The notes beneath the pieces were generated by a model. It was not told where the DNA came from. It searched no databases and saw nothing but the letters and a program-made list of their open reading frames with translations. Source: a virus (Duplodnaviria > Caudoviricetes). From it: a stretch of 58,168 nucleotides of DNA. Below, one piece after another: positions 8,449 to 39,948 of this stretch (positions within the stretch are counted from its first letter, which is position 1; every line of letters begins with the position of its first letter). Made by a program: the position numbers and the translations under genes. The DNA is taken from IMG/VR virus record IMGVR_UViG_3300037117_000093, positions 1 through 58,168 of that record; one strand, written 5' to 3'.

Positions 8449-10800
8449 CTACGCCACCCGCGCCTGCGGTTCAAGCTTGCCGATCGGCTTTGCCATGTCG
8501 CCGGTCTTCAGCCATTCCTTGAATGCCGCGACCGACAATTCCGTCACCCCGCCGAAGTGCGCGCGCCCGTCCGCAGGGTCGTCCCAGCCGGCGAGATAAT
8601 CGGCCAGCGCCTCAGCCTCGCTCTTGTAGCCGAGCATGCACTTCGTCTCGTCGAACTGCCCGGCCGTGTGCCCGTGCCGAGTGTTCGCGTGCACTTGGTC
8701 GATGACCCAGACGCGATCAGATTTCGGGTGCACCCCCATGTAGCAATCGACCTGCATCCCGTCGTTGCCGAGCGTGCCGCGGATGTAGCCGTAATGCGCC
8801 GGCATCACGACATGATGGTGCACGCCCTCTGCGTCGGTCACGTGCCGGGTGCGGCCGGAGGCGTTCTCGATCGTCAGGTCGAGTCCGTTCCACGCGATAT
8901 GACCCTTCGGATAGACGCCGCTGTCGATTTGCGCGGGCGACGGATTTGGCAGCGCCTTGTCAGCCTCGCGAGCAATCTGGTTTGCCAGGTGGCCCTTGGC
9001 GACGGCGCCGTGCTTCTTCGCCCATTTACGCCGGCAAATGCCGCACACCAGCCGGCCACCGCAGGTCTTCGGATTGTGCTGCTTTGCCACCGGGTCGCCC
9101 TGATCGTACCAAACGAGACCGGTCCCGGTCGAAACCGTATCCGCCTTCGCGATGAACTTCGCGGCAATGGCCGGCGGCGTGCGCTGGCGCGCTGGCGGCT
9201 TGCCCTTAGCCCCGCCGCCGGCAGGGACTTGCTTGGGGTCACGCCCCCTCGGCGCGCCACCCGGAATCCCAGGAGGCAGCGCGACGGGGGCCGGCGGCGG
9301 AGTTGGTGGATTGAGCACGCTTTCGAGCGTCACGACGATGCCGCCGGCCGCAACCGTCGGCTCGACGCCCTGCCCGTCCGGCAGCGGTTCCTCGCCGAGG
9401 TCGGCCCGGCATTCGTCGCGCGAGCGCAGCCCGGAGTTAAGCTGGATTTGATGCACCTGCGCCTGCTTCAGCGGATCGACCTCGGGCCGCTGGTCCCACG
9501 CCATTTCCACTTCGTCATAGCCGAAGCGGTCCTGGATCAGATGGTCGATGAGGTCTTCCTTGACGAACTTCATCAGGGGCCGCAGCCCCTCTTGCTCGGC
9601 GGCATCCTGCGCCTGGACCGCGGTATCTCGGTTCATCTGGCGGATGAAAGGCGACGGGGGCACGCTGAACACGTAGCAGACCAGCCTGATCCACATCTCA
9701 TCGATCGGCGCGTACATCTCGCCGCCGTTGGCGCTCTTGATCTCAAACGGCTTCATGCCGTCCGGGACGAACTGCACCTTCGATTTTCGGCTGAGGTTGC
9801 CGGAGTTCTGCGCGTCGAAATGCGCCTGGAAAGCCGCAATCTGCCGCACGCCCCACGCAGCCGGCACCGACATGATCATGTCGGGTATCGTGCCGTCTTC
9901 CCAATATTTGACCTCGTAGAAGGTCTTGCGAACGGCAGCCGTCGCTTCGCACAGGATCTGCGCGCAGGGACTGTATCCAAATACGGGTAAATAAGGCAAA
10001 GGCCGCATCGGCTTCCGTATAAGTTCAGTCTCGTCAAGGTTTACGATGGGCAAACCCTTGATGATTTGCTGATAGGCAGGCTGTGGCGCATCTGGTGTTC
10101 TTCCGGCGTCGTCGATCATCGGGAAAAGAGTCGCGGCATCAATTATTTCTGCTGTAATAGGACGCCCCATCCTGTCTCGGTTCCCGACATAAAGCGCTGG
10201 GCAATCCAGGATGAACAGGTCGTCCATCCACATGCGCATCCACTGGTCGAAAGAATGCTTACCGTCCGGCCGTTTCAGGAAATCGGCTATTTCCTTCGTC
10301 CATTTGCTTTCCTGTTTCGGCTTGCCGCGCACCTGGATCGTCCAGGGGATCGTGAGAAGCTGGTCCTTGCGTGTTTCGATGATCGCCGACAGAAAGCCCC
10401 AACTCGACCGCATCGCGCGGAGCATCTGGAAAAACTCGAACTGCTCCGGGATGAAGTTGAGGTTGTAGCCGACCGTGTAATCGAAGTCGCGCGGCCGGGT
10501 GACCGAGGGCGGCCCGTATGGCGCCACCGGCTGCATCGGCCCGAACCAGTTCGCCCCAACATCAACGTCGTGGATCGTGTCGGGCGGCTGCACCGGGCGC
10601 TCTCCGGTGTATTTGCTCTCGCCAGTGGGCTGCTGCTCAGTCGGGTGGCGCAGCGCCTCGGACAGCGCGGAGCGACGGGCGCTATCCGCCTGCCGCTCAG
10701 CCTGCGCGCTGCGCACCGGCGCCATGCGCGCGCCCGGCACCATCGCCGGCGTCTTCTGCATCGTGCGGGTCTGCGGCCCGCGGCGCGACTTGCGGCTCAT
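8449..10800 (-). CDS. Phage portal protein fused to a C-terminal inorganic-pyrophosphatase-like (InPase) domain
   Basis: Portal motifs (VFGYSP, EGLRPL, SRDECRADLGEEP); C-terminal YPKGH..GLDLTIEN..MPAHYGYIRGT.GNDG.QVDCYMG..DETKCMLG..FKEWL. Confidence 0.9.
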   Translation of the reverse strand: MSRKSRRGPQTRTMQKTPAMVPGARMAPVRSAQAERQADSARRSALSEALRHPTEQQPTGESKYTGERPVQPPDTIHDVDVGANWFGPMQPVAPYGPPSVTRPRDFDYTVGYNLNFIPEQFEFFQMLRAMRSSWGFLSAIIETRKDQLLTIPWTIQVRGKPKQESKWTKEIADFLKRPDGKHSFDQWMRMWMDDLFILDCPALYVGNRDRMGRPITAEIIDAATLFPMIDDAGRTPDAPQPAYQQIIKGLPIVNLDETELIRKPMRPLPYLPVFGYSPCAQILCEATAAVRKTFYEVKYWEDGTIPDMIMSVPAAWGVRQIAAFQAHFDAQNSGNLSRKSKVQFVPDGMKPFEIKSANGGEMYAPIDEMWIRLVCYVFSVPPSPFIRQMNRDTAVQAQDAAEQEGLRPLMKFVKEDLIDHLIQDRFGYDEVEMAWDQRPEVDPLKQAQVHQIQLNSGLRSRDECRADLGEEPLPDGQGVEPTVAAGGIVVTLESVLNPPTPPPAPVALPPGIPGGAPRGRDPKQVPAGGGAKGKPPARQRTPPAIAAKFIAKADTVSTGTGLVWYDQGDPVAKQHNPKTCGGRLVCGICRRKWAKKHGAVAKGHLANQIAREADKALPNPSPAQIDSGVYPKGHIAWNGLDLTIENASGRTRHVTDAEGVHHHVVMPAHYGYIRGTLGNDGMQVDCYMGVHPKSDRVWVIDQVHANTRHGHTAGQFDETKCMLGYKSEAEALADYLAGWDDPADGRAHFGGVTELSVAAFKEWLKTGDMAKPIGKLEPQARVA

Positions 10801-11021
10801 GGTTCGGCCTTTTCAACCAGCGCGCTCATAAAGGATATTTTTGTCTGATTGAGCATTGTTGCCCGCGAGAGGCGCTGGAACTTTTCGGCCGCCTCGCTTT
10901 CGTTTCGAGCACGAATGACGGTAAGACCGCTGATCGTCCACGCAAATGCGAAATCGCTATAAAGGCGCGGCTGGTTGATGGCGCGATCGGTGAGGTACCG
11001 GGTGTCATTGGGCGGCAACAC
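10797..11021 (-). CDS. Small chimeric protein; N-terminus resembles the start of a prokaryotic E2 (E2_E)
   Basis: GTG start with GGGAG RBS; MLPPNDTRYLTDRAI... Confidence 0.5.
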   Translation of the reverse strand: MLPPNDTRYLTDRAINQPRLYSDFAFAWTISGLTVIRARNESEAAEKFQRLSRATMLNQTKISFMSALVEKAEP

Positions 11022-11397
11022 GGTGGCGCTCCCAAAGCGATGCTCCTTTGCCCGGGTTGATCTGGGCTGGCGCGATAAAGAAGCGCAACCCACTCCGGAT
11101 TTCGACAACTTCATCGTTGCTGATCTTTCGATCAGACCCGCCGGGCACGACCTCAAACAGGTCGCGATCCGGTCCGATCGGCGTGGGAGGGACGTGGCGA
11201 AGTTCCTCGCCGGTCATTCGCTCTTTGTGGACCGCGTATTCTGTCCTGTCGATCTGGATACGATAGCTCCCTTCATGGTGGTGCTCGTGCTCGTGCTCGT
11301 GCTCGGTGCAATTCCGGCATGTCAGCGCCTCGCCGAACCTGAAATGCGTGCGGCAAACGACGCAAACCCACGGCTGCGCCATCAGGTCATCGTTCAC
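11005..11397 (-). CDS. Multiubiquitin-type ubiquitin-like protein with N-terminal CxxC-CxxC and His/Glu tract
   Basis: YRIQIDR...MTGEELR...DLFEVVPGGSDRKI...VEIRSGLRFF.AP..INPG beta-grasp signature. Confidence 0.8.
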   Translation of the reverse strand: MNDDLMAQPWVCVVCRTHFRFGEALTCRNCTEHEHEHEHHHEGSYRIQIDRTEYAVHKERMTGEELRHVPPTPIGPDRDLFEVVPGGSDRKISNDEVVEIRSGLRFFIAPAQINPGKGASLWERHRVAAQ

Positions 11398-11585
11398 AGC
11401 GCCGCCTTCCTCGCCTCGTCGAACGCGCGCCGAACATCGATGTCATCGATCAGCCGCACGATAACAGAGCGCCGGCTTATAAGTGCCTCGTCAGAACGAT
11501 TGCGAACGGCATCGTCAAGAACGTTCCCCAAGACCTCGCGCGCGCGGATCAGCAATTCATCGGTCGAGGGTGCATTGTCGGTCAC
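11394..11585 (-). CDS. Hypothetical protein
   Basis: Coupled ORF; start uncertain. Confidence 0.5.
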   Translation of the reverse strand: MTDNAPSTDELLIRAREVLGNVLDDAVRNRSDEALISRRSVIVRLIDDIDVRRAFDEARKAAL

Positions 11586-11589
11586 GATC

Positions 11590-11796
11590 TCACGCTCCCC
11601 CAAAGCCATCATGACACGAACCGACCGGATGACCGCACCCGCATCGAAGCAAGCCAATAACAGCACGCGCGCAGGAAAGCGCAGCGTCATTTGGCTGTAG
11701 CGGCGCACCACCGTCGCGGAAAGACTGCTCAAATGCCCCAAGCGCGAACGGCACGAGGGCCATCGCGATAGCGATTTCATCAACGGTAGCATTCAC
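11590..11796 (-). CDS. Hypothetical protein
   Basis: Fills gap after terL; start uncertain. Confidence 0.4.
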   Translation of the reverse strand: MNATVDEIAIAMALVPFALGAFEQSFRDGGAPLQPNDAALSCARAVIGLLRCGCGHPVGSCHDGFGGA

Positions 11797-13543
11797 GGTG
11801 CCAGGCATCGACGCCATCAGAAATCCTCTCAGCCCCCAGCGGCTTGCCGCAATGATGACACACTTCCGGCGGCGCCTGCAAATCCCGCAGCGCTATCTCG
11901 TAAAGCTCGGCGCCATCAGCCTCAGCCGCAGGCCGATCCGCCTCAGCGTCCACGTCCTTGTGCCACGGCAATTTCCGAGCTTCCGGCGTCAGCCGCTCCG
12001 GCCGGCTGCGGTCAACCAGCGGCCGGCGAGCCTCCTCGGCGTAGAACTTCATCACCGCCTCGCCGCTGAAGCCGTCCACGGCCCCGGCATAGACCAAGCT
12101 GTCGCCCTTGTCCGGCGAACGCTTCAGCCGGTCCATGATTTCCTCTTTGCTCTCAACTTGCCACCCGCGCGTCGTCAGCTTGCGCCGGGGCGCCGTCAAG
12201 TCGGCGAGCAACTCGCGATCCGGCGGCAACGCCCAATCGTCGCCGTATTCCGGGTCGAGCGCCTCCCTGGCCCGGCAATACCATTCCGCCCGCTTGTTGT
12301 AGAAGCCGACCAGCCCCGAGCGGTCGCGCGCCGTCGATGCGCCGGAGCCGACCATGCCGACCATGTTGAGGCCGCTCATCTCGCCGATATCGACCGGCGA
12401 CGACCCGACACCAATCACGTCGATTTGCACCGGCGTATGCTTGCCCGGCTTTTCCTCGAGCACGGCCTCAATGACGCTCTGCCCATTCGGCGTCAGATGG
12501 CCCGCGATCACCCGTTGCCGAGCGAACCAATAATCGTGCCGACGGGTGATGACCGTGCGGTCCCGCCCGCCGCGCGCCACGTCAACCCCGAGTGCAGACA
12601 GCACCGGCGAGGGCGGATCGTCCGTCCAGCGCTCCATCGCCATCTCAACCCACGCGGTCGGGATGACCTGGTAGGCGTCATCCTCAACCCCGGCCTGAAA
12701 ATCGCCGTCGAGCATCTGCGAGCGGAACGGCTCGTCGAGCGCCTGCAGCGTCGCCTCGTAGCGCGTGCCGCGAAGGTAGATGTTGTCCTTGACGCGGCTC
12801 GGAATGAAGGTCCGCGACTGCGGCAGGATCAGGCGATCTCCGATGCGCATCTGATCAGGACCGTCAACCGCCATATCGCGACCGTTAGCGTCGGTAGCGT
12901 ACCAACGCAACTCGCCGGGCTCGGCCGGGTGCGGGTGTTTCTTGTCCAGCCACGGGCCGAAGTAATCAAGCAACCACATACCGACCGCGCTCGTCGGCGG
13001 GTTGAACGCAATGACGGCGCGCGTCCGCTGCCCGCGAAGCGTCGTGCGCAACCACGCCAGGATGAACAGCACGACGGCGCGCGGAAAATGCTCGCCCTGG
13101 TCAAAGCCAATGAAATCGTGCGGGCGCCCTTGGAGCTTAAGCATGTCCGCGTCGTGGTGCACGCTGATGAATTCCAGCACGCGCGCGTCAGAGAAGCGCC
13201 AGCGGCCTCCCGTGCTGTCGGCGCGCCACGTTGCGCCGAGCGGTAGAAATATCTCGCGCGCTCGGTCGATCAGCGCCGAGAACTCGTTGCCGGCTCGGCG
13301 ATAGATAACGCTGCGCTGATGCTGTTGATGGGCGATGCCGAGCAAAGCGTCGGACTTACCACCCCCGAGCGCGCCACCCAGGCCGAGGATATCCGCAGCG
13401 CTATTGTAGGCGAGTTCCTGCGGCCCTGGCTGCGGCGTCCAGCGGTCCGGCTCCTTCAGCTCCGCTTCGATCCTCGTCAGCAGCAAGCGTAGCTCTGAGC
13501 GAGGTAGCGAATTCAGCGAGCTGCTCTTTGGTAAGTCGCTCAA
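11780..13543 (-). CDS. terL: Terminase large subunit
   Basis: PQPGPQ; Walker A GGALGGGKS; FIGFDQ; NPP; nuclease LGVDVARGGRD; SPDKGD. Confidence 0.93.
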   Translation of the reverse strand: MSDLPKSSSLNSLPRSELRLLLTRIEAELKEPDRWTPQPGPQELAYNSAADILGLGGALGGGKSDALLGIAHQQHQRSVIYRRAGNEFSALIDRAREIFLPLGATWRADSTGGRWRFSDARVLEFISVHHDADMLKLQGRPHDFIGFDQGEHFPRAVVLFILAWLRTTLRGQRTRAVIAFNPPTSAVGMWLLDYFGPWLDKKHPHPAEPGELRWYATDANGRDMAVDGPDQMRIGDRLILPQSRTFIPSRVKDNIYLRGTRYEATLQALDEPFRSQMLDGDFQAGVEDDAYQVIPTAWVEMAMERWTDDPPSPVLSALGVDVARGGRDRTVITRRHDYWFARQRVIAGHLTPNGQSVIEAVLEEKPGKHTPVQIDVIGVGSSPVDIGEMSGLNMVGMVGSGASTARDRSGLVGFYNKRAEWYCRAREALDPEYGDDWALPPDRELLADLTAPRRKLTTRGWQVESKEEIMDRLKRSPDKGDSLVYAGAVDGFSGEAVMKFYAEEARRPLVDRSRPERLTPEARKLPWHKDVDAEADRPAAEADGAELYEIALRDLQAPPEVCHHCGKPLGAERISDGVDAWHRECYR

Positions 13544-14123
13544 TGACCTGCTCCAGGCTCAGCTTGCCGGTGTGCTCGATCGGCGCCAGGCGAGCATGGA
13601 TATAGGGCGCCGCAGCCTTGCACGCGTCGAGAACGATCGCTTCGCGCGCCGGGTCGTGCCGATTGCGCGCGATAATCCGCAGCATTTCGTCGAGCGGCAC
13701 GATGCCGGCAATCGAGATTGCCTCGGCGATCAGGTGCGCCGGCTGCGCGGCAAGCTCGTGGCTCTGCGGCGCGCCTTGCGTGCGATGCGTGCTGTGAACG
13801 CTGGGTCGCGTGCTGATCTTCGGCGGCGGCAGCACACGTTCGCCGGTCTTCTGCTCAATGCGCTGGATCGTTTTTGAAATGCTCTGGTAGTGGCAGGCGA
13901 GAGCCTCAGCGATCGACCGCATCGTTTCGCCGGCTCGGCGGCGACGGACAATCTCTTGATCCCGCAGGAGAAGATCAACTCTGTTGAGGAGCGGCTTCCC
14001 CATCGGACCGCGGGCGACAACATAGGGCGTTCCGGCAGGCGATGGCGCGGTGACAGGCTTCGGCTTTGCCTTCGATCCCTTCGGCCGGCCGCGCGGGCGG
14101 CCTGTCGGGACGTAGACGCTCAT
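13401..14123 (-). CDS. terS: Terminase small subunit (AT-hook + HTH)
   Basis: GRPRGRPKGSK; HTH; AKAAAPYIH-like motif (CKAAAPYIHARL); overlaps terL. Confidence 0.75.
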   Translation of the reverse strand: MSVYVPTGRPRGRPKGSKAKPKPVTAPSPAGTPYVVARGPMGKPLLNRVDLLLRDQEIVRRRRAGETMRSIAEALACHYQSISKTIQRIEQKTGERVLPPPKISTRPSVHSTHRTQGAPQSHELAAQPAHLIAEAISIAGIVPLDEMLRIIARNRHDPAREAIVLDACKAAAPYIHARLAPIEHTGKLSLEQVIERLTKEQLAEFATSLRATLAADEDRSGAEGAGPLDAAARAAGTRLQ

Positions 14124-14359
14124 TGCGCCATCGCCGGCCGACGCTCGCCGCACCAGTCAGTCGGCGCGACGGTCTGCCAGAACGGTCCGCGCGGCGCATC
14201 ATCATTCGATCGGGGATCGCCAGGCTCGGCGACCTTGCGCAATGGCCGACCCGGCTCCGCTTCGGCGAGCGACGGCGGAAAGCGGTGGCACGCTCCTGCC
14301 GCCTCGATATCGGCGACCGGAGCGAAATAGCGGCAGGTGGCGCACATTGGGCTTGACAT
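14120..14359 (-). CDS. Small Cys-rich phage protein
   Basis: CATCRYF..GACHRFPP..DWCGE pattern. Confidence 0.7.
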   Translation of the reverse strand: MSSPMCATCRYFAPVADIEAAGACHRFPPSLAEAEPGRPLRKVAEPGDPRSNDDAPRGPFWQTVAPTDWCGERRPAMAQ

Positions 14360-27567: not shown

Positions 27568-28697
27568 TTGCTGCGATTCCCCAAAAGCTGATCCGCAAAA
27601 TCCCCAAACCCCTCGCTCGGGAGTATCGCCTCTGCGGCTATCCCGTGCCGGCGCCACCATCCGGCCGCGTATGCGGCCACTGCCTCGCCGACGAAGCCTC
27701 TATCGCCAAATATCCAGAGGCCGCGCACATCGGGCGGTATCCAGATCGACGGCGCGCGCTCGTCGAACCACCGCGCGGTGACGCCCTGCGGCGGCACGTC
27801 CGGCGCAATCCAGTGCCGGCGATCGCCGACGCCCTCAGACCAATGCGCCGGGTAGCCGAGCCGCGACAGGCCGCATAGGGACCAGACCGGTATGCGGTAG
27901 AGGATCGATGCCGCGACCGCGCTCTCGACGCCTTCCGCCAACCCGAGGATCGGCCCAGCCGGTGCCAAGCGCACGGCGCCATCTAGCATCGCGCCCAGCG
28001 TCTTCTTCCTTATATTGAGTTTCGGCCGGGCGTCCGGCGCTGAGCGCGCCAAGCTGCGGATGCTCGCCAGCGCCTCGCCGCTGAACATGCGCTGATGGTT
28101 CCGTGCCCAGCCGGCCGGGTCGCGTTCGTAATCCTCGATTGACAGGCACCAAATTCGCTGCACCGCCGTCACGCGGCCGTCAGATGCGGTGATCGGCGCG
28201 ACCATCGCAGGGAGCGGCCTGCCGACCTCATGGCAGTAGAGCGCGGCATGCGACAGCAGCGCCGGATGATCCGAACCGAGGCCGCGGCTCCAAAGATACA
28301 GGCGCGCCGCCGTGCCGTCCGACACCGGGCCGCACTCGCGTAGGATAACGTTAATGCGGGCCGCCTTCCGGGAAGGATCGTCGTAATGACGTTCTCTAGG
28401 CGTTCTTTCCAAGTTTTGCCTTTGAAGAGGCAGCGGCGGCAGATCGATCAGCCAGCGCACGGCGCCGGCGAAGTCCAGATGCTCGGCGCGCTGCACAAGG
28501 TCGATCACGTCGCCATAACCGCAGCCGGCGAAGCAATGCCAGTGGTCATCCTTGATCCCGAAGCTCGGCTTGCGATCCTCGTGGAAGATGCATGGGCCGG
28601 TCAGCCAAGCCCCGGCCCGCTTGAGCGGCGTGTATCGCGCGGCAATGTCCGCGATCGGGACGGCTTTGGCCCGCGCGAAATCGGCGTCAGGGATCAT
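27564..28697 (-). CDS. DNA primase (CHC2 zinc finger + Toprim)
   Basis: CIFHEDRKPSF..HCFAGC; AEGVESA; FGD. Confidence 0.88.
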   Translation of the reverse strand: MIPDADFARAKAVPIADIAARYTPLKRAGAWLTGPCIFHEDRKPSFGIKDDHWHCFAGCGYGDVIDLVQRAEHLDFAGAVRWLIDLPPLPLQRQNLERTPRERHYDDPSRKAARINVILRECGPVSDGTAARLYLWSRGLGSDHPALLSHAALYCHEVGRPLPAMVAPITASDGRVTAVQRIWCLSIEDYERDPAGWARNHQRMFSGEALASIRSLARSAPDARPKLNIRKKTLGAMLDGAVRLAPAGPILGLAEGVESAVAASILYRIPVWSLCGLSRLGYPAHWSEGVGDRRHWIAPDVPPQGVTARWFDERAPSIWIPPDVRGLWIFGDRGFVGEAVAAYAAGWWRRHGIAAEAILPSEGFGDFADQLLGNRSK

Positions 28698-30649
28698 GGC
28701 CTGTAGACCGCCGCGATATGCCGGCTCAACGCCTCCGGGATTTTCGCGATCATTGCGCTCGCGGCTTTGCGGCTGTCCGATTTTTTGATGCCCTCGTGCT
28801 CGGCGGAATTCGTCAGATGGCGGGTGTGCGGTGCGCCATCTCGAATGTGGGGAATATGTCCGGTCGTTTTGACCCTATCGCGGTAGCGTTGCGCGGCCGT
28901 CACGTTGAAGCCCTTTGCCTTATAGCCCGGTTTGTCATGCCCGCTGAAATTAAGCCCCGCAACCTTCACCGACGCCGATTGAAACGATCGGCCGCTGCCG
29001 TCGAACCGGAAGCCAGCAACCTTGTGCCCGTGAAAATTCGTGACACCATCAGGGCGATGCGCAATTCCTGCTTTCATTACTCGTCCGGTCGTGAACGGCA
29101 TCAGCGCCGGAACATCGCCCCAAAGGTGGTAGCTACCGAAGTTCCACCGCGAGCGGCCCACCCAAGGAATCGCCCCGCGGACGTTTTCGACGACCATAGG
29201 GATGTGCCGCCCGGCGGCGAGCGAGGCTTGCGCCTGGATACGAAAGCAGGCATCGAACAGGCGGGTGAGGTCGGTGAGCATCTGCCCGCTCGTGTCGGCG
29301 CGGATCGCCGCCGCCTTGGCCTTCGCCAGCGACCACGGCATCGCCATCCACGAGTAGGCTTGGCAATTATGGACGACCACGCCATCAGCGACGTAGCTGT
29401 TGTCCTCCTCAACTTCGAGGTTCCAGACTTCAGCGGCGGGTTGGCCTTCGGCGATGTGTCGGACGCGCCCCCACTGCATCCCATAATCGCACTCGACCAA
29501 GCGATTATGATCCGCGCCAGGCGTCCATCGCGTGTCCCAACTGTCCCGCTGGTTTACCGTGCGACCCTCAATTTCATAGGTCGGCGGCCGTGGTTGATGA
29601 TGCACCGTAGAGACGGACCCAAGAGAGGCGGCAAGGAACCGCGTTCCGATAGCCAACCCCTTGCTGACCGTAGTCGTCTTGATGATCTGTGTGTGCCCAT
29701 TAAGGACTGCGTAGCCATCTGCCGAGACATATCCGTCAAGCAACGCCTGACGGCGGCTCCGCTCCATACCGAACACCCACGCCGGCCACGATTTCCCGGC
29801 AGCGCCGAGGCCGAAGTGGTGGGATATCCATTCCGCCAAGGAATTGCTCGCCGCCGTGAAGCGCGCCGTTGTTCGCTCGACAGAACGTCGCCAATGCAAT
29901 TCGCCGGGTTTGGCCCGAGAACCGGCCCGTGGTGCCACGGCGGCGAGCCGGCCATCAAGATCATCAGCCTCGTCGTGGGCGCAGCAGATGAGCACCTCGT
30001 CACCGCCTCGCGTCTCTGGCCTTCGCCGCAGCCATCCGTCGCCGACCCATCGTCCCACCATCCACCAGAATTCGGGTGTGTCGGGAAGATCGTTCGGCAG
30101 CGGCGGGATCGGCAACTCGTCAAAGGCGACGGGGCTGGCCCAATGGCTTCCTGCGCTTTCGGCCATCGGAATCCATTGGGGTTCCTCTAGGTGTTTGGGA
30201 TGGTAGGTCCAACTTACTCGGCAGGAACCGCTGTCGCGCCGCGCGTAAACCGGATGCTCAGCGGTGCCCTCAAGCGTCGCCCCATAGCCCGATGCAATTA
30301 CCGTCGCTGCAAAGGTGCTCCCCGTCCGCAGAACTCGACGCCAGCGGTTCTGATGGGTCAGGACAAGATCGCCTACAACGACATCGGGAATGGGGAGCAG
30401 CCCGCGATCAGTCAAAATCAGCGTGTCAGCGACAAAGCACGGCGGCGAGGCGACGATCAGCGCCGCATCGCGGAACTGCGAACCGTGCAGCGTCAGCACG
30501 TCCTGGATTACAAGCTGCGCCGGGTAGCGGTGCTCGCCGTACTGGTGCCGCTCGATATCGAAGCCGATGACATCGTAGCCCTCGGCGAGGAATCCTTCCG
30601 ACCATCCACCCAACCCGCAAAAAAGGTCGATCATCAGCGGGTTGGTCAT
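28694..30649 (-). CDS. C5-cytosine DNA methyltransferase-like protein with intein
   Basis: DLFCGLGG; SPP|CQ split by intein; ENVRG. Confidence 0.88.
   Translation of the reverse strand: MTNPLMIDLFCGLGGWSEGFLAEGYDVIGFDIERHQYGEHRYPAQLVIQDVLTLHGSQFRDAALIVASPPCFVADTLILTDRGLLPIPDVVVGDLVLTHQNRWRRVLRTGSTFAATVIASGYGATLEGTAEHPVYARRDSGSCRVSWTYHPKHLEEPQWIPMAESAGSHWASPVAFDELPIPPLPNDLPDTPEFWWMVGRWVGDGWLRRRPETRGGDEVLICCAHDEADDLDGRLAAVAPRAGSRAKPGELHWRRSVERTTARFTAASNSLAEWISHHFGLGAAGKSWPAWVFGMERSRRQALLDGYVSADGYAVLNGHTQIIKTTTVSKGLAIGTRFLAASLGSVSTVHHQPRPPTYEIEGRTVNQRDSWDTRWTPGADHNRLVECDYGMQWGRVRHIAEGQPAAEVWNLEVEEDNSYVADGVVVHNCQAYSWMAMPWSLAKAKAAAIRADTSGQMLTDLTRLFDACFRIQAQASLAAGRHIPMVVENVRGAIPWVGRSRWNFGSYHLWGDVPALMPFTTGRVMKAGIAHRPDGVTNFHGHKVAGFRFDGSGRSFQSASVKVAGLNFSGHDKPGYKAKGFNVTAAQRYRDRVKTTGHIPHIRDGAPHTRHLTNSAEHEGIKKSDSRKAASAMIAKIPEALSRHIAAVYRP
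29366..30439 (-). mobile_element. Intein (358 aa) with LAGLIDADG-type endonuclease
   Basis: Starts CFVADT; TAEHP block B; GRWVGDG and LLDGYVSADG; ends VVHN followed by Cys+1. Confidence 0.93.
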
Positions 30650-38085: not shown

Positions 38086-39948
38086 ATGCCCGACGACATT
38101 CAGACCATCGCCCCCGCCGCGACGCAGCGCGACCTCGCGACGATGCCGATCGAGCAAGCGCTCGAACTCTATGCGCCGAATTTCGCGGCCGTGCTACCGC
38201 CGAACATTCCGGTCGATCACTTCCGCCGCATGGTCGTGACGGCGATCAACGTGCAGCCGGCGCTGATGAAGGCAGACCGGCGCACGCTGTTCAATTCGTG
38301 CGTGAAGTGCGCCAGCGATGGTTTGCTGCCGGACGGGCGCGAGGCAGCGCTCGTTATCTACAAGACGAAGATCAAAGACGGCATGGGGGCCGAACGGTGG
38401 ATCGACGCGGTGCAATACCTGCCGATGGTGGCCGGCATCCGCAAGCGGTTGCGCAACAGCGGCGAGGTGGACAGCGCCACGGCCGAGGTCGTTTATCGGA
38501 AGGATCGCTTCAAATATGCACTTGGCGACGGCTCATTCATCGAACACGAACCGCCCCCGCTCGACGAGGACCGCGGCGACGCGATTGGTGCCTATGCCAT
38601 TATCAAGCTGACCAGCGGCGAGGTGATCCGCGAGGTAATGAGCCTGCGGGAGATTGAGCGCGTGCGCGCGGTGAGCCGCAGCAAGGACAAAGGCCCGTGG
38701 GTTGATTGGTGGGGCGAGATGGCGCGCAAGACGGTGCTACGCCGTGCCGCTAAGGCCGCGCCGCAGGCGTCGACGCTCGAAAAGTTGCTGATGCGCGATG
38801 ATGACGAGGAAGAATTGCCGGACGCCGCATCGCTGCCGCCGGCGCCAGCCAGGCCGACTCGGCAACAATTCGCGCTGCCGCCGCAGGATTACGCCGACCC
38901 ACCCGCCGCCGAGCCGGCGCAGACCTTCGCCGTCATCGACCTCGATGGCGTCGAGATACAGTACGCGACGGCAGCCGAAGCCGCGAATGAGATCGCGCTG
39001 ATCCTGGCGCAAGCGGCCAAGCGCGGTCCCGAGGCGCTGGAGGGCGCCCTTGAGCAGAACGAGCCGATCATGCGGCTCGGCGATGCGGCGGCCTCGGTCA
39101 TTGAGGCGTATAACGCGCTGTCGGCAGATTTGAAACAGACTTCGGCGCGCGAAGCGTCGGAGCGCTCTCAGGCCGGTGGTCTTGGCGGACCGGAGCCGGT
39201 CGGGGAGCGTCCCAATCATCCCCGTGCTGGTGCAGAGCCAGGCCGCGGCGGCGCAACCTTGCCGGAACGTGAACCCGGGAACGCGGCGCATGCCGAGGGC
39301 GGCCGAACAGCCGGTTCAATTCCGGCGACGGGGGCCACCGATGCCGCGCCAGATCGCCCGGTTCCGCAAGCGCTTATCGACCGCGGCGATGCGGTCGCGG
39401 TGAGCGGCAAGGACAAACTCAACGATTGGTGGAGCAACCTCTCGGCGTTCCAGCGCGGCGACCTCGGGGCCAAGGGCCGCGGGAGGGGACCGCATTACGA
39501 GCGATGGGAGACGGTCGCCACGGAGGCGGATGATGCCGCGCGCCAGCCGCCGCCAGCGCAGCAGAGTGCGGCGGCCAGTCCCAACCACCCGGCGCGCGCG
39601 CCCGTAGCGGCACCGGCCGCTCCCGCTGGCAATCTTCTGGCCGGCGATACCGAGCGCCGGGTGCCGAGACGCGTTCCGGAGCCGGAGCTGACCGCAAAGC
39701 CATTCGACCCGGCCGCCACGCTGCGCGGATCGCTCGCCATCGAGCCGGTGATGAACAATGGGCGCCCAGACTGGCGCGCTTGGTATGTGGCGCTGTTCGC
39801 CCCGAAGCTGCGCCAGGCGACCGGCGAAACTCTCCCATTCCTGCTCGGCGATAACCAGGATCACCTGACGGCGGCGCGGAACGCGGGCTATGCGGCGGAA
39901 ATCGACGCCGCGGTCAAGGAAGCTTGGGCGAAGGTGGGTGCGCCCTAA
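38086..39948 (+). CDS. recT: RecT-family single-strand annealing protein with long C-terminal extension
   Basis: DGLLPDGREAALV; GPW...EMARKTVLRR. Confidence 0.9.
   Translation: MPDDIQTIAPAATQRDLATMPIEQALELYAPNFAAVLPPNIPVDHFRRMVVTAINVQPALMKADRRTLFNSCVKCASDGLLPDGREAALVIYKTKIKDGMGAERWIDAVQYLPMVAGIRKRLRNSGEVDSATAEVVYRKDRFKYALGDGSFIEHEPPPLDEDRGDAIGAYAIIKLTSGEVIREVMSLREIERVRAVSRSKDKGPWVDWWGEMARKTVLRRAAKAAPQASTLEKLLMRDDDEEELPDAASLPPAPARPTRQQFALPPQDYADPPAAEPAQTFAVIDLDGVEIQYATAAEAANEIALILAQAAKRGPEALEGALEQNEPIMRLGDAAASVIEAYNALSADLKQTSAREASERSQAGGLGGPEPVGERPNHPRAGAEPGRGGATLPEREPGNAAHAEGGRTAGSIPATGATDAAPDRPVPQALIDRGDAVAVSGKDKLNDWWSNLSAFQRGDLGAKGRGRGPHYERWETVATEADDAARQPPPAQQSAAASPNHPARAPVAAPAAPAGNLLAGDTERRVPRRVPEPELTAKPFDPAATLRGSLAIEPVMNNGRPDWRAWYVALFAPKLRQATGETLPFLLGDNQDHLTAARNAGYAAEIDAAVKEAWAKVGAP
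39220..39337 (+). other. Degenerate tRNA-like structure inside recT
   Basis: Acceptor CCCCGT/ACGGGG; T arm GCCGG-TTCAATT-CCGGC; terminal GCCA. Confidence 0.5.

Follow-up and report, generated by a model that had tools for sequence, protein, structure and literature searches.

The window analysed here is the whole IMG/VR virus record IMGVR_UViG_3300037117_000093, 58,168 bases in length, and was found to encode a ubiquitin-like protein (Ubl) between the genes of its large terminase subunit (terL) and its portal protein. The gene in question (11005..11397, (-)) is an open reading frame (ORF) of 130 amino acids, with the stop codon included in the coordinates given. Comparison with bacterial homologues showed it to be a relative of bubA, the Ubl gene of Bub operons, and it was almost certainly captured from an operon of this kind, along with the first codons of the adjoining E2 gene (bubB). 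Its product might act as a decoy or competitor of the BubA of an infected host.

The domain at residues 45-116 of the Ubl (11050..11265, (-)), which terminates in APAQINPG with glycine G116 as its last residue, was assigned to the Multi_ubiq family (PF14452) over residues 45-109 with a score of 35.6 bits, the cut-off being 24.5 (E 1.1e-8), and a six-frame search of the record gave 36.7 bits for the same family. No family match to the protein was found in PHROGs, PADLOC or NCBIfam, and a search against the sequences of the PDB returned chance matches only (E >= 0.25). An AlphaFold2 (AF2) model, built with an alignment of 23 sequences, possessed a predicted local distance difference test score (pLDDT) of 88-96 over residues 41-110, and of just ~50-56 at the N-terminus (53-56 in the cysteine-rich region described below) and the C-terminal tail. 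Foldseek comparison with the PDB placed bacterial multi-ubiquitin proteins at the top (9d59, 9d5a, 8u38, 9d5b and 9cd2), followed by BubA bound to BubCD (9ea8). The top matches had E values of 1e-4 to 5e-3 (six at E <= 1e-3), and the first eight superposed with root mean square deviations of 1.6-2.2 Å over 70-74 columns.

Translation of the gene starts at a GTG codon, with a Shine-Dalgarno (SD) sequence (AGGAAGG) 7 nt upstream, and this start overlaps the stop codon of the preceding ORF (ORF132) as GTGA. The GC contents at the first, second and third codon positions (0.66, 0.43 and 0.71) follow a coding-like pattern. At the N-terminus of the protein is a motif of four cysteines (Cys4; CxxC-x11-CxxC; C12, C15, C27 and C30; 11308..11364, (-)), presumed to be a zinc-binding module, and it very likely lies within the protein produced, as the GTG start is backed by an SD sequence and overlaps the stop of ORF132. 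A regular expression search identified CxxC..CxxC in none of 119 database homologues, and this module may be either an addition made by the phage or a part of an unsampled donor. When residues 1-35 served as the query of an exhaustive HMMER search, the sole match was to a Cys-rich repeat protein of 3470 amino acids and was judged to be compositional, and no similarity was found between the Cys4 N-terminus and small ORFs adjoining related terL genes. The motif is followed by a His/Glu-rich tract (E32-E42; 11272..11304, (-)). Similar tracts precede the beta-grasp domain in bacterial BubA homologues (e.g. L090, L087 and P0048), and the tract is a trait of the family and not a novelty of the phage. 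A C-terminal extension of 14 codons and a stop (11005..11049, (-)), a putative pro-peptide, completes the gene and holds the SD sequence and start of the bubB remnant.

These features agree with a preliminary description of this DNA, which had been made from its letters alone. A beta-grasp domain of multiubiquitin type ending in INPG and followed by 14 residues had been described there, and is borne out by the PF14452 score above cut-off and by the fold matches of the AF2 model. The CxxC..CxxC motif and the His/Glu tract ahead of the domain can be read in the ORF as had been stated, and the suggested pro-form, with a C-terminal Gly and an extension, is seen in G116 and the 14 residues after it, as in the homologues. 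The position given for the gene was likewise correct, with flanking genes on the same strand matching phrog_979 (terL) and phrog_2662 (portal).

A word-indexed protein search resulted in 969 matches at E <= 1e-3 among 979 candidates. All of the 120 relatives listed contained PF14452, with domains sharing 55-84% identity with the phage copy, and bacterial relatives situated in Bub-type operons were 50-84% identical to it. The alignment showed an unusually conserved family that ends in INPG and then continues into a variable tail. When the loci of these genes were surveyed using one genome per species, 73 loci from many phyla were obtained, and a Prok-E2_E gene was situated directly downstream of the Ubl gene in 71 of them, with 66 also possessing JAB-E1 and DUF6527 genes. 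For two loci, Pfam searches identified the downstream genes as Prok-E2_E, an E1 of the ThiF family whose N-terminus matches Prok-JAB weakly, DUF6527 and a serine protease of SDH/ClpP-like type. All four genes were present in 57 of the 73 loci; nine had E2, E1 and DUF6527, two had E2 and E1, three had E2 alone and two had none. The JAMM motif (HxH..S..D) was found in 71 of 72 bacterial E1 proteins. Loci lacking E1 or DUF6527 stop soon after the Ubl gene, being cut by contig ends (the ORF finder applied to the loci listed no open-ended ORFs). The exception is locus L071 (8001-8540) of a Terriglobia genome, where a frameshifted Ubl pseudogene sits beside HicA/HicB-like genes with no Bub enzymes nearby, this being a decayed copy.

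An E2 gene was also immediately downstream in 10 of 11 metagenome loci, and no relatives of terL, portal or ORF132 were found in these 11 loci. The same order is present in the NCBI annotation of a Methylocystis plasmid (multiubiquitin, E2/UBC, ThiF, DUF6527 and a hypothetical protein). This class of operon, formerly 6E/DUF6527, has been named Bub by Ye et al., according to the available part of their paper (PMC11601596). The relatives of the phage gene can be categorized as Bub and not Bil, as they possess the architecture of Prok-E2_E followed by a JAB-ThiF fusion and then DUF6527. The preliminary description had referred to Bil/Bub-type systems together; this can be narrowed to Bub, in whose operons the relatives sit, and the bubB remnant strengthens the case for an origin in such an operon. 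In a tree of 70 Ubl domains, the phylum labels required 17 changes, and homologues were present on seven plasmids, from which this subfamily of Bub operons appears to be mobile between distant phyla.

The origin of the phage gene is recorded in the DNA at its 3' end. When bacterial operon proteins were compared to the window with tblastn, the only matches beyond those of the Ubl were to the N-termini of E2 proteins (their first 13-17 residues), at 11021-10971 (-), with an identity of 65% over 17 amino acids for the E2 of locus L004 (E 6e-4 per query) and of 77% over 13 amino acids for that of L009. A remnant of bubB (Prok-E2_E), consisting of a GTG and 16 further codons, is thus situated at 10971..11021 (-), and translation from the GTG at 11021 retains the residues that are invariant at the N-terminus in an E2 alignment (L2, P3, D6, L10 and R13). 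In the source operons, bubA and bubB are separate ORFs with an overlap of 17 nt (e.g. L004:8272-8288, L087 and L090). The remnant has the same geometry, overlapping the stop of the Ubl gene by 17 nt, with the E2 start 17 nt before that stop and a GGGAG SD sequence lying where the Ubl tail is encoded. This overlap also explains the conserved ..RVAxQ end of the tail in a subset of bacteria, as this stretch doubles as the start of E2 (MLPPxD).

Alignment of the phage and bacterial DNA was found to be collinear up to ~10972 and divergent beyond that position, and the homologous block identified with blastn (11274-10972) had an identity of 69-77% among the 30 best-scoring matches. The end of the collinear block at ~10972 indicates that what the phage took from a Bub operon was bubA with codons 1-17 of bubB. 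Either the donor is unsampled or the capture event was not recent. The remnant now forms the beginning of a chimeric ORF of 74 codons (ORF74; 10797..11021, (-)), in which bubB codons 1-17 are joined to 57 further codons. Its stop overlaps the ATG of the portal gene as ATGA, and on Logan contigs it was predicted by a gene caller (P0125). Residues 18-74 had no homologue other than ORF74 itself and its GC content at the third codon position (GC3) is low (0.57-0.64), leaving its coding status uncertain.

With respect to the site of insertion, the portal gene directly follows terL in some relatives of this terL (L076, L077 and Acidovorax phage AP1), with other small genes located in the terL-portal gap of others (L075, Bordetella phage BPP-1 and Limnohabitans phage DC33). 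The gap is thus a variable and tolerant site. The Cys4 N-terminus and the C-terminal part of ORF74 might represent two halves of an ancestral phage gene that the insertion split; no homologue of either was found in the databases searched.

No other part of a Bub system accompanies the gene. Six-frame searches of the record for Prok-E2_E, ThiF, DUF6527, SDH_protease and Prok-JAB gave no match at E <= 1, and with these operon enzymes absent the phage gene is a BubA homologue and not part of a Bub system. The claim of the preliminary description that no E1, intact E2 or JAB gene is present was consequently accurate, the wording of no intact E2 being apt, as a 17-codon remnant is all that exists of one. 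The orphan status of the gene was likewise confirmed, and the survey for orphan Ubls that it had recommended revealed no second phage-borne case in the records scanned. No Ubl relative was found using tblastn in 50,697 phage records at E <= 0.01, nor when 2.9 million IMG/VR contigs were scanned twice with patterns, which in the second scan were degenerate and drawn from 14 diverse domains, although the records closest to the window may have been outside these scans. In BFVD, no structure matched at E <= 1e-3, and the nearest neighbours were giant-virus ubiquitin-like proteins (E 0.013 and worse). An identical Ubl protein has been recorded from both JGI and Logan assemblies, which speaks against an assembly chimera.

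The captured domain is well preserved. Within residues 45-116, F45Y and T108I are the only departures from the consensus at positions conserved in at least 80% of the 119 homologues (T occurs at position 108 in 97% of homologues). G116 is invariant in all 119, and each has at least one residue after this Gly, with 34 having 14 residues. The phage branch in the tree has a terminal length of 0.39, compared to a median of 0.11, with invariant sites kept. In Citrobacter, BubCD cuts after the conserved Gly (available part of PMC11601596). Co-folding was performed with the BubCD of locus L004 (alignment of 30) and residues 45-116 of the phage Ubl, with three controls, and gave an interaction prediction score from aligned errors (ipSAE) of 0.78, the best of the controls giving 0.00. 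Among complexes of solved structure, 58 of 80 attain that mark, as do two of 110 mismatched pairs. Three runs agreed in at least 98% of contacts, with a partner pLDDT of at least 91, and the modelled interface set Ubl residues 107-116 against JAB residues including H89, H91, S101 and D104. As related JAB-Ubl and BubCD-BubA complexes have already been solved, this result is to be read as likeness to a substrate and not as proof of binding. Taken as a model, it supports recognition of the phage Ubl tail by the JAB domain of bacterial BubCD.

Based on these findings the following mechanism can be envisaged. The phage would have captured bubA and the start of bubB by illegitimate recombination, with the fragment landing in the terL-portal gap. 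The Ubl would most likely be made late, alongside the structural proteins, as its gene shares the strand of the packaging genes and has a start codon overlapping the end of ORF132. In a host carrying a Bub operon, the JAB peptidase of BubCD should recognise the phage Ubl and trim it after G116, given that the conserved surface, the C-terminal Gly and the removable tail have been kept, and the trimmed protein should then be taken up by E1 and E2. An abundant foreign Ubl with a Cys4 module would compete with host BubA, either by soaking up the enzymes or by being attached in its place, and either route would blunt the action of Bub during infection. That the phage Ubl is a decoy or competitor of host BubA is the interpretation preferred here, and a decoy against defence was also the central proposal of the preliminary description, but it is put forward as tentative and short of probable. 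The fuller claim, of a decoy that is made late, processed by the host JAB-E1 and able to outcompete host BubA, is more doubtful; if correct, this would be the first anti-defence protein to mimic a Ubl and the first genomic evidence of Bub acting against phages. Bub operons have been linked with defence regulators and mobile elements (PMC11601596, in the part available).

A number of observations weigh against a role as a decoy. The nearest bacterial loci share only 74-77% nucleotide identity with the phage copy, and at this distance changes that followed capture are not distinguishable from those that arose between bacteria, nor can selection in the phage be measured. As a single phage lineage carries the gene, its retention across phage evolution is not demonstrable. 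The piece of bubB that was kept looks like an unselected scar, and the GC3 of the Ubl gene (0.71) is below that of terL and portal (0.80). In a 73-column tree, the phage was left at a polytomy and did not fall within the alphaproteobacterial clade. Searching 401 genomes of one class for terL gave matches of 45-51% in three genomes, and no terL relatives were found in four genomes carrying loci L004, L005, L026 and L044. Neither the tree nor the terL searches revealed a donor or host, and the presence of a Bub operon in the host is thus not established. Furthermore, protection by Bub against any phage is not reported in the available parts of a 2024 preprint (PMC11601596) and a 2026 paper (PMC13373217).

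Several of these points would be accounted for if the gene were a neutral passenger, namely a piece of Bub operon of ~300 bp that arrived by illegitimate recombination at a tolerant spot, where it persists for the present without serving the phage. The restriction to one phage lineage, the useless scrap of bubB that came along, the ORFan nature of both flanking ORFs (ORF132 and ORF74), the variation of the terL-portal gap among relatives and a GC3 lower than in flanking genes are all consistent with this explanation. However, the ORF is intact with all but two of the conserved family positions kept, it has a good SD sequence and an in-frame Cys4 module, and its junctions on both sides are overlapping start and stop codons. 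The long terminal branch with retained invariant sites also fits continued constraint, without being proof of it. Phage genomes are also compact, and useless DNA is lost from them quickly. On balance, a passenger of this type is considered somewhat unlikely.

A different possibility is that the protein serves the phage by hijacking the pathway, with host BubCD and BubB attaching it to host or phage proteins, for example to mark or inactivate a host factor or to modify a virion protein, which would go beyond a simple block of the pathway. The evidence for compatibility with the enzymes (conserved positions, JAMM motif and co-fold) is equal for this and for a decoy, and conjugation could deliver the distinct Cys4 module as a cargo. 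The N-terminal domains of BubA come in diverse forms and might serve as effector parts (PMC11601603, available part). Conversely, no target is known and nothing in the window suggests a partner for substrate recognition, and the gene occurs in a single lineage. Hijacking of this nature is regarded as rather improbable.

Lower still is the likelihood of a role that is independent of Bub, in which the beta-grasp and Cys4 parts, acting as a structural or adaptor domain, take part in packaging, head assembly or nucleic acid binding, with the Gly and tail being irrelevant. Beta-grasp domains are versatile, the gene is situated in the packaging module and coupled to neighbouring ORFs, and the extra InPase domain of the portal protein shows that unusual additions to this module occur. 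Yet relatives of the window terL manage without a Ubl, no PHROG family was matched, and the positions that were kept are those of a conjugation substrate, INPG and tail among them. Finally, a chimeric assembly of bacterial and phage DNA, or a contig that is bacterial rather than viral, could be suspected of a metagenome-derived record of linear class, but is extremely improbable given identical Ubl, ORF132 and ORF74 proteins on separate JGI and Logan contigs, two junctions formed by overlapping start and stop codons within one operon, and a completeness of 93% (CheckV) with terminase, portal, tail, lysis and replication genes present and no integrase found.

The gene content of the record is that of a tailed phage, with replication genes spanning ~16-40 kb and a tail module similar to that of gene transfer agents, along with a muramidase, at ~41-57 kb. 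No tyrosine integrase was found in the record, no major capsid protein was clearly identifiable among the ORFs scanned, and a scan for promoters and terminators gave no signal above that of shuffled sequences. The packaging genes begin with a putative small terminase with a helix-turn-helix (13401-14153, (-)), followed by terL (11780-13543, (-); phrog_979, E 1.3e-33), which forms the upstream flank of the insertion and shares 43-47% identity with terL of Limnohabitans, Caulobacter and Bordetella phages. The terL product has a C-terminal extension of ~100 amino acids (11780-11860, (-)) beyond the coverage of its relatives, whose matches stop near residues 486-507. This extension terminates in a CHHC...HxxC motif, which may be a second zinc knuckle and adjoins the gene of the Cys4-containing Ubl. 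Between terL and the Ubl gene is ORF132 (11394..11792, (-); GC3 0.71), an ORFan of 132 codons located 5' of the Ubl gene and in translational overlap with it. No match to ORF132 was found in Pfam, PHROG, PADLOC, NCBIfam or Atlas, its sole database match being ORF132 itself.

The downstream flank is formed by the portal gene (8449-10800, (-); phrog_2662, E 4.5e-55; PF04860), whose product is fused at its C-terminus to an InPase domain (PF18823, E 7e-40). Its PHROG matches were to very large virion proteins or to "DarB-like antirestriction" proteins, which suggests that a module of an injected polyvalent protein may have been joined to the portal. On the portal side, towards the contig end (4443-7172, (-)), are a methyltransferase-like ORF (phrog_4752) and a tetratricopeptide repeat protein with a weak glycosyltransferase-9 match. 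Elsewhere in the record, an ORF of 651 amino acids beside the primase (28694-30649, (-)) gave matches to Hint, LAGLIDADG and intein-splicing families and can be regarded as a replication gene containing an intein. In an ORF of 620 amino acids (38086-39948, (+)), a RecT domain lies within residues 1-240, and the long C-terminal part is unassigned.

Bub operons are widespread and their chemistry is well described. An intact orphan Bub substrate in a phage provides an independent hint of interaction between Bub and phages, and that a phage interferes with this still unexplained system of protein tagging. The phage Ubl, at 130 amino acids, also offers a concrete reagent for probing Bub, and the bubB scar is an unusually clean record of a phage picking up part of a host operon. 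No description of a phage-encoded BubA or multiubiquitin protein was found among the titles and abstracts listed; the supplementary tables of the Bub papers, which might list split bubA/bubB genes or prophage copies, were outside this search. A full-text literature search for DUF6527 together with phage returned only the two Corbett-lab preprints.

The closest known counterpart of the phage protein is the BubA of Type I Bub (6E.1/DUF6527), as presented in the available parts of Ye et al. (bioRxiv 2024; PMC11601596) and Gong et al. (PMC11601603). Shared features are the Multi_ubiq beta-grasp domain, the conserved C-terminal Gly that JAB cleavage exposes in BubA, and an N-terminal module of the kind that varies within the family. 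In contrast to BubA within Bub operons, the phage copy has no genes for E2, E1 or BubE (DUF6527) in the same record, and it has a Cys4 motif that none of the 119 homologues possess. BubA N-terminal domains are described as highly variable in the available text of PMC11601603, in which the word zinc does not occur. A JAB-E1 fusion links the source operons to Type I Bub, but they differ from the published form in that bubA and bubB are separate overlapping genes and not a BubAB fusion, and in the addition of an SDH/ClpP-like protease (57 of 73 loci). Conjugation in Bub is ATP-dependent and proceeds via Tyr/Ser oxyester intermediates (PMC11601596, available part).

Bil is comparable in that a Ubl is conjugated by E1 and E2 late in infection, according to the available part of Hör et al. 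(10.1101/2023.09.04.556158), and a phage countermeasure to such a pathway is conceivable. The presence of deubiquitinase domains in tail proteins was speculated in that source to counter Bil. In Bil, however, the E2 (BilB) is accompanied by a stand-alone JAB (BilC) and an E1 that is Cys-based (BilD), whereas relatives of the phage Ubl are found with E2_E, JAB-E1 and DUF6527. Baculovirus v-ubi and the ubiquitin-like proteins of giant viruses are likewise virus-borne copies of a host protein modifier, but the ubiquitins of eukaryotic viruses are ubiquitin proper and not Multi_ubiq, and no significant structural match to the phage Ubl was found among them in BFVD. The anti-defence sponges and mimics of phages, such as Tad, Acb and Ocr, bind nucleotide signals or mimic DNA. 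Set beside these, the phage Ubl is likewise phage-encoded and is a homologue of BubA, which belongs to a host system, and the logic would be the same, that of a small phage protein occupying or starving a component of host immunity. Unlike Tad, Acb and Ocr, the phage Ubl is proposed to mimic the protein substrate of a conjugation cascade.

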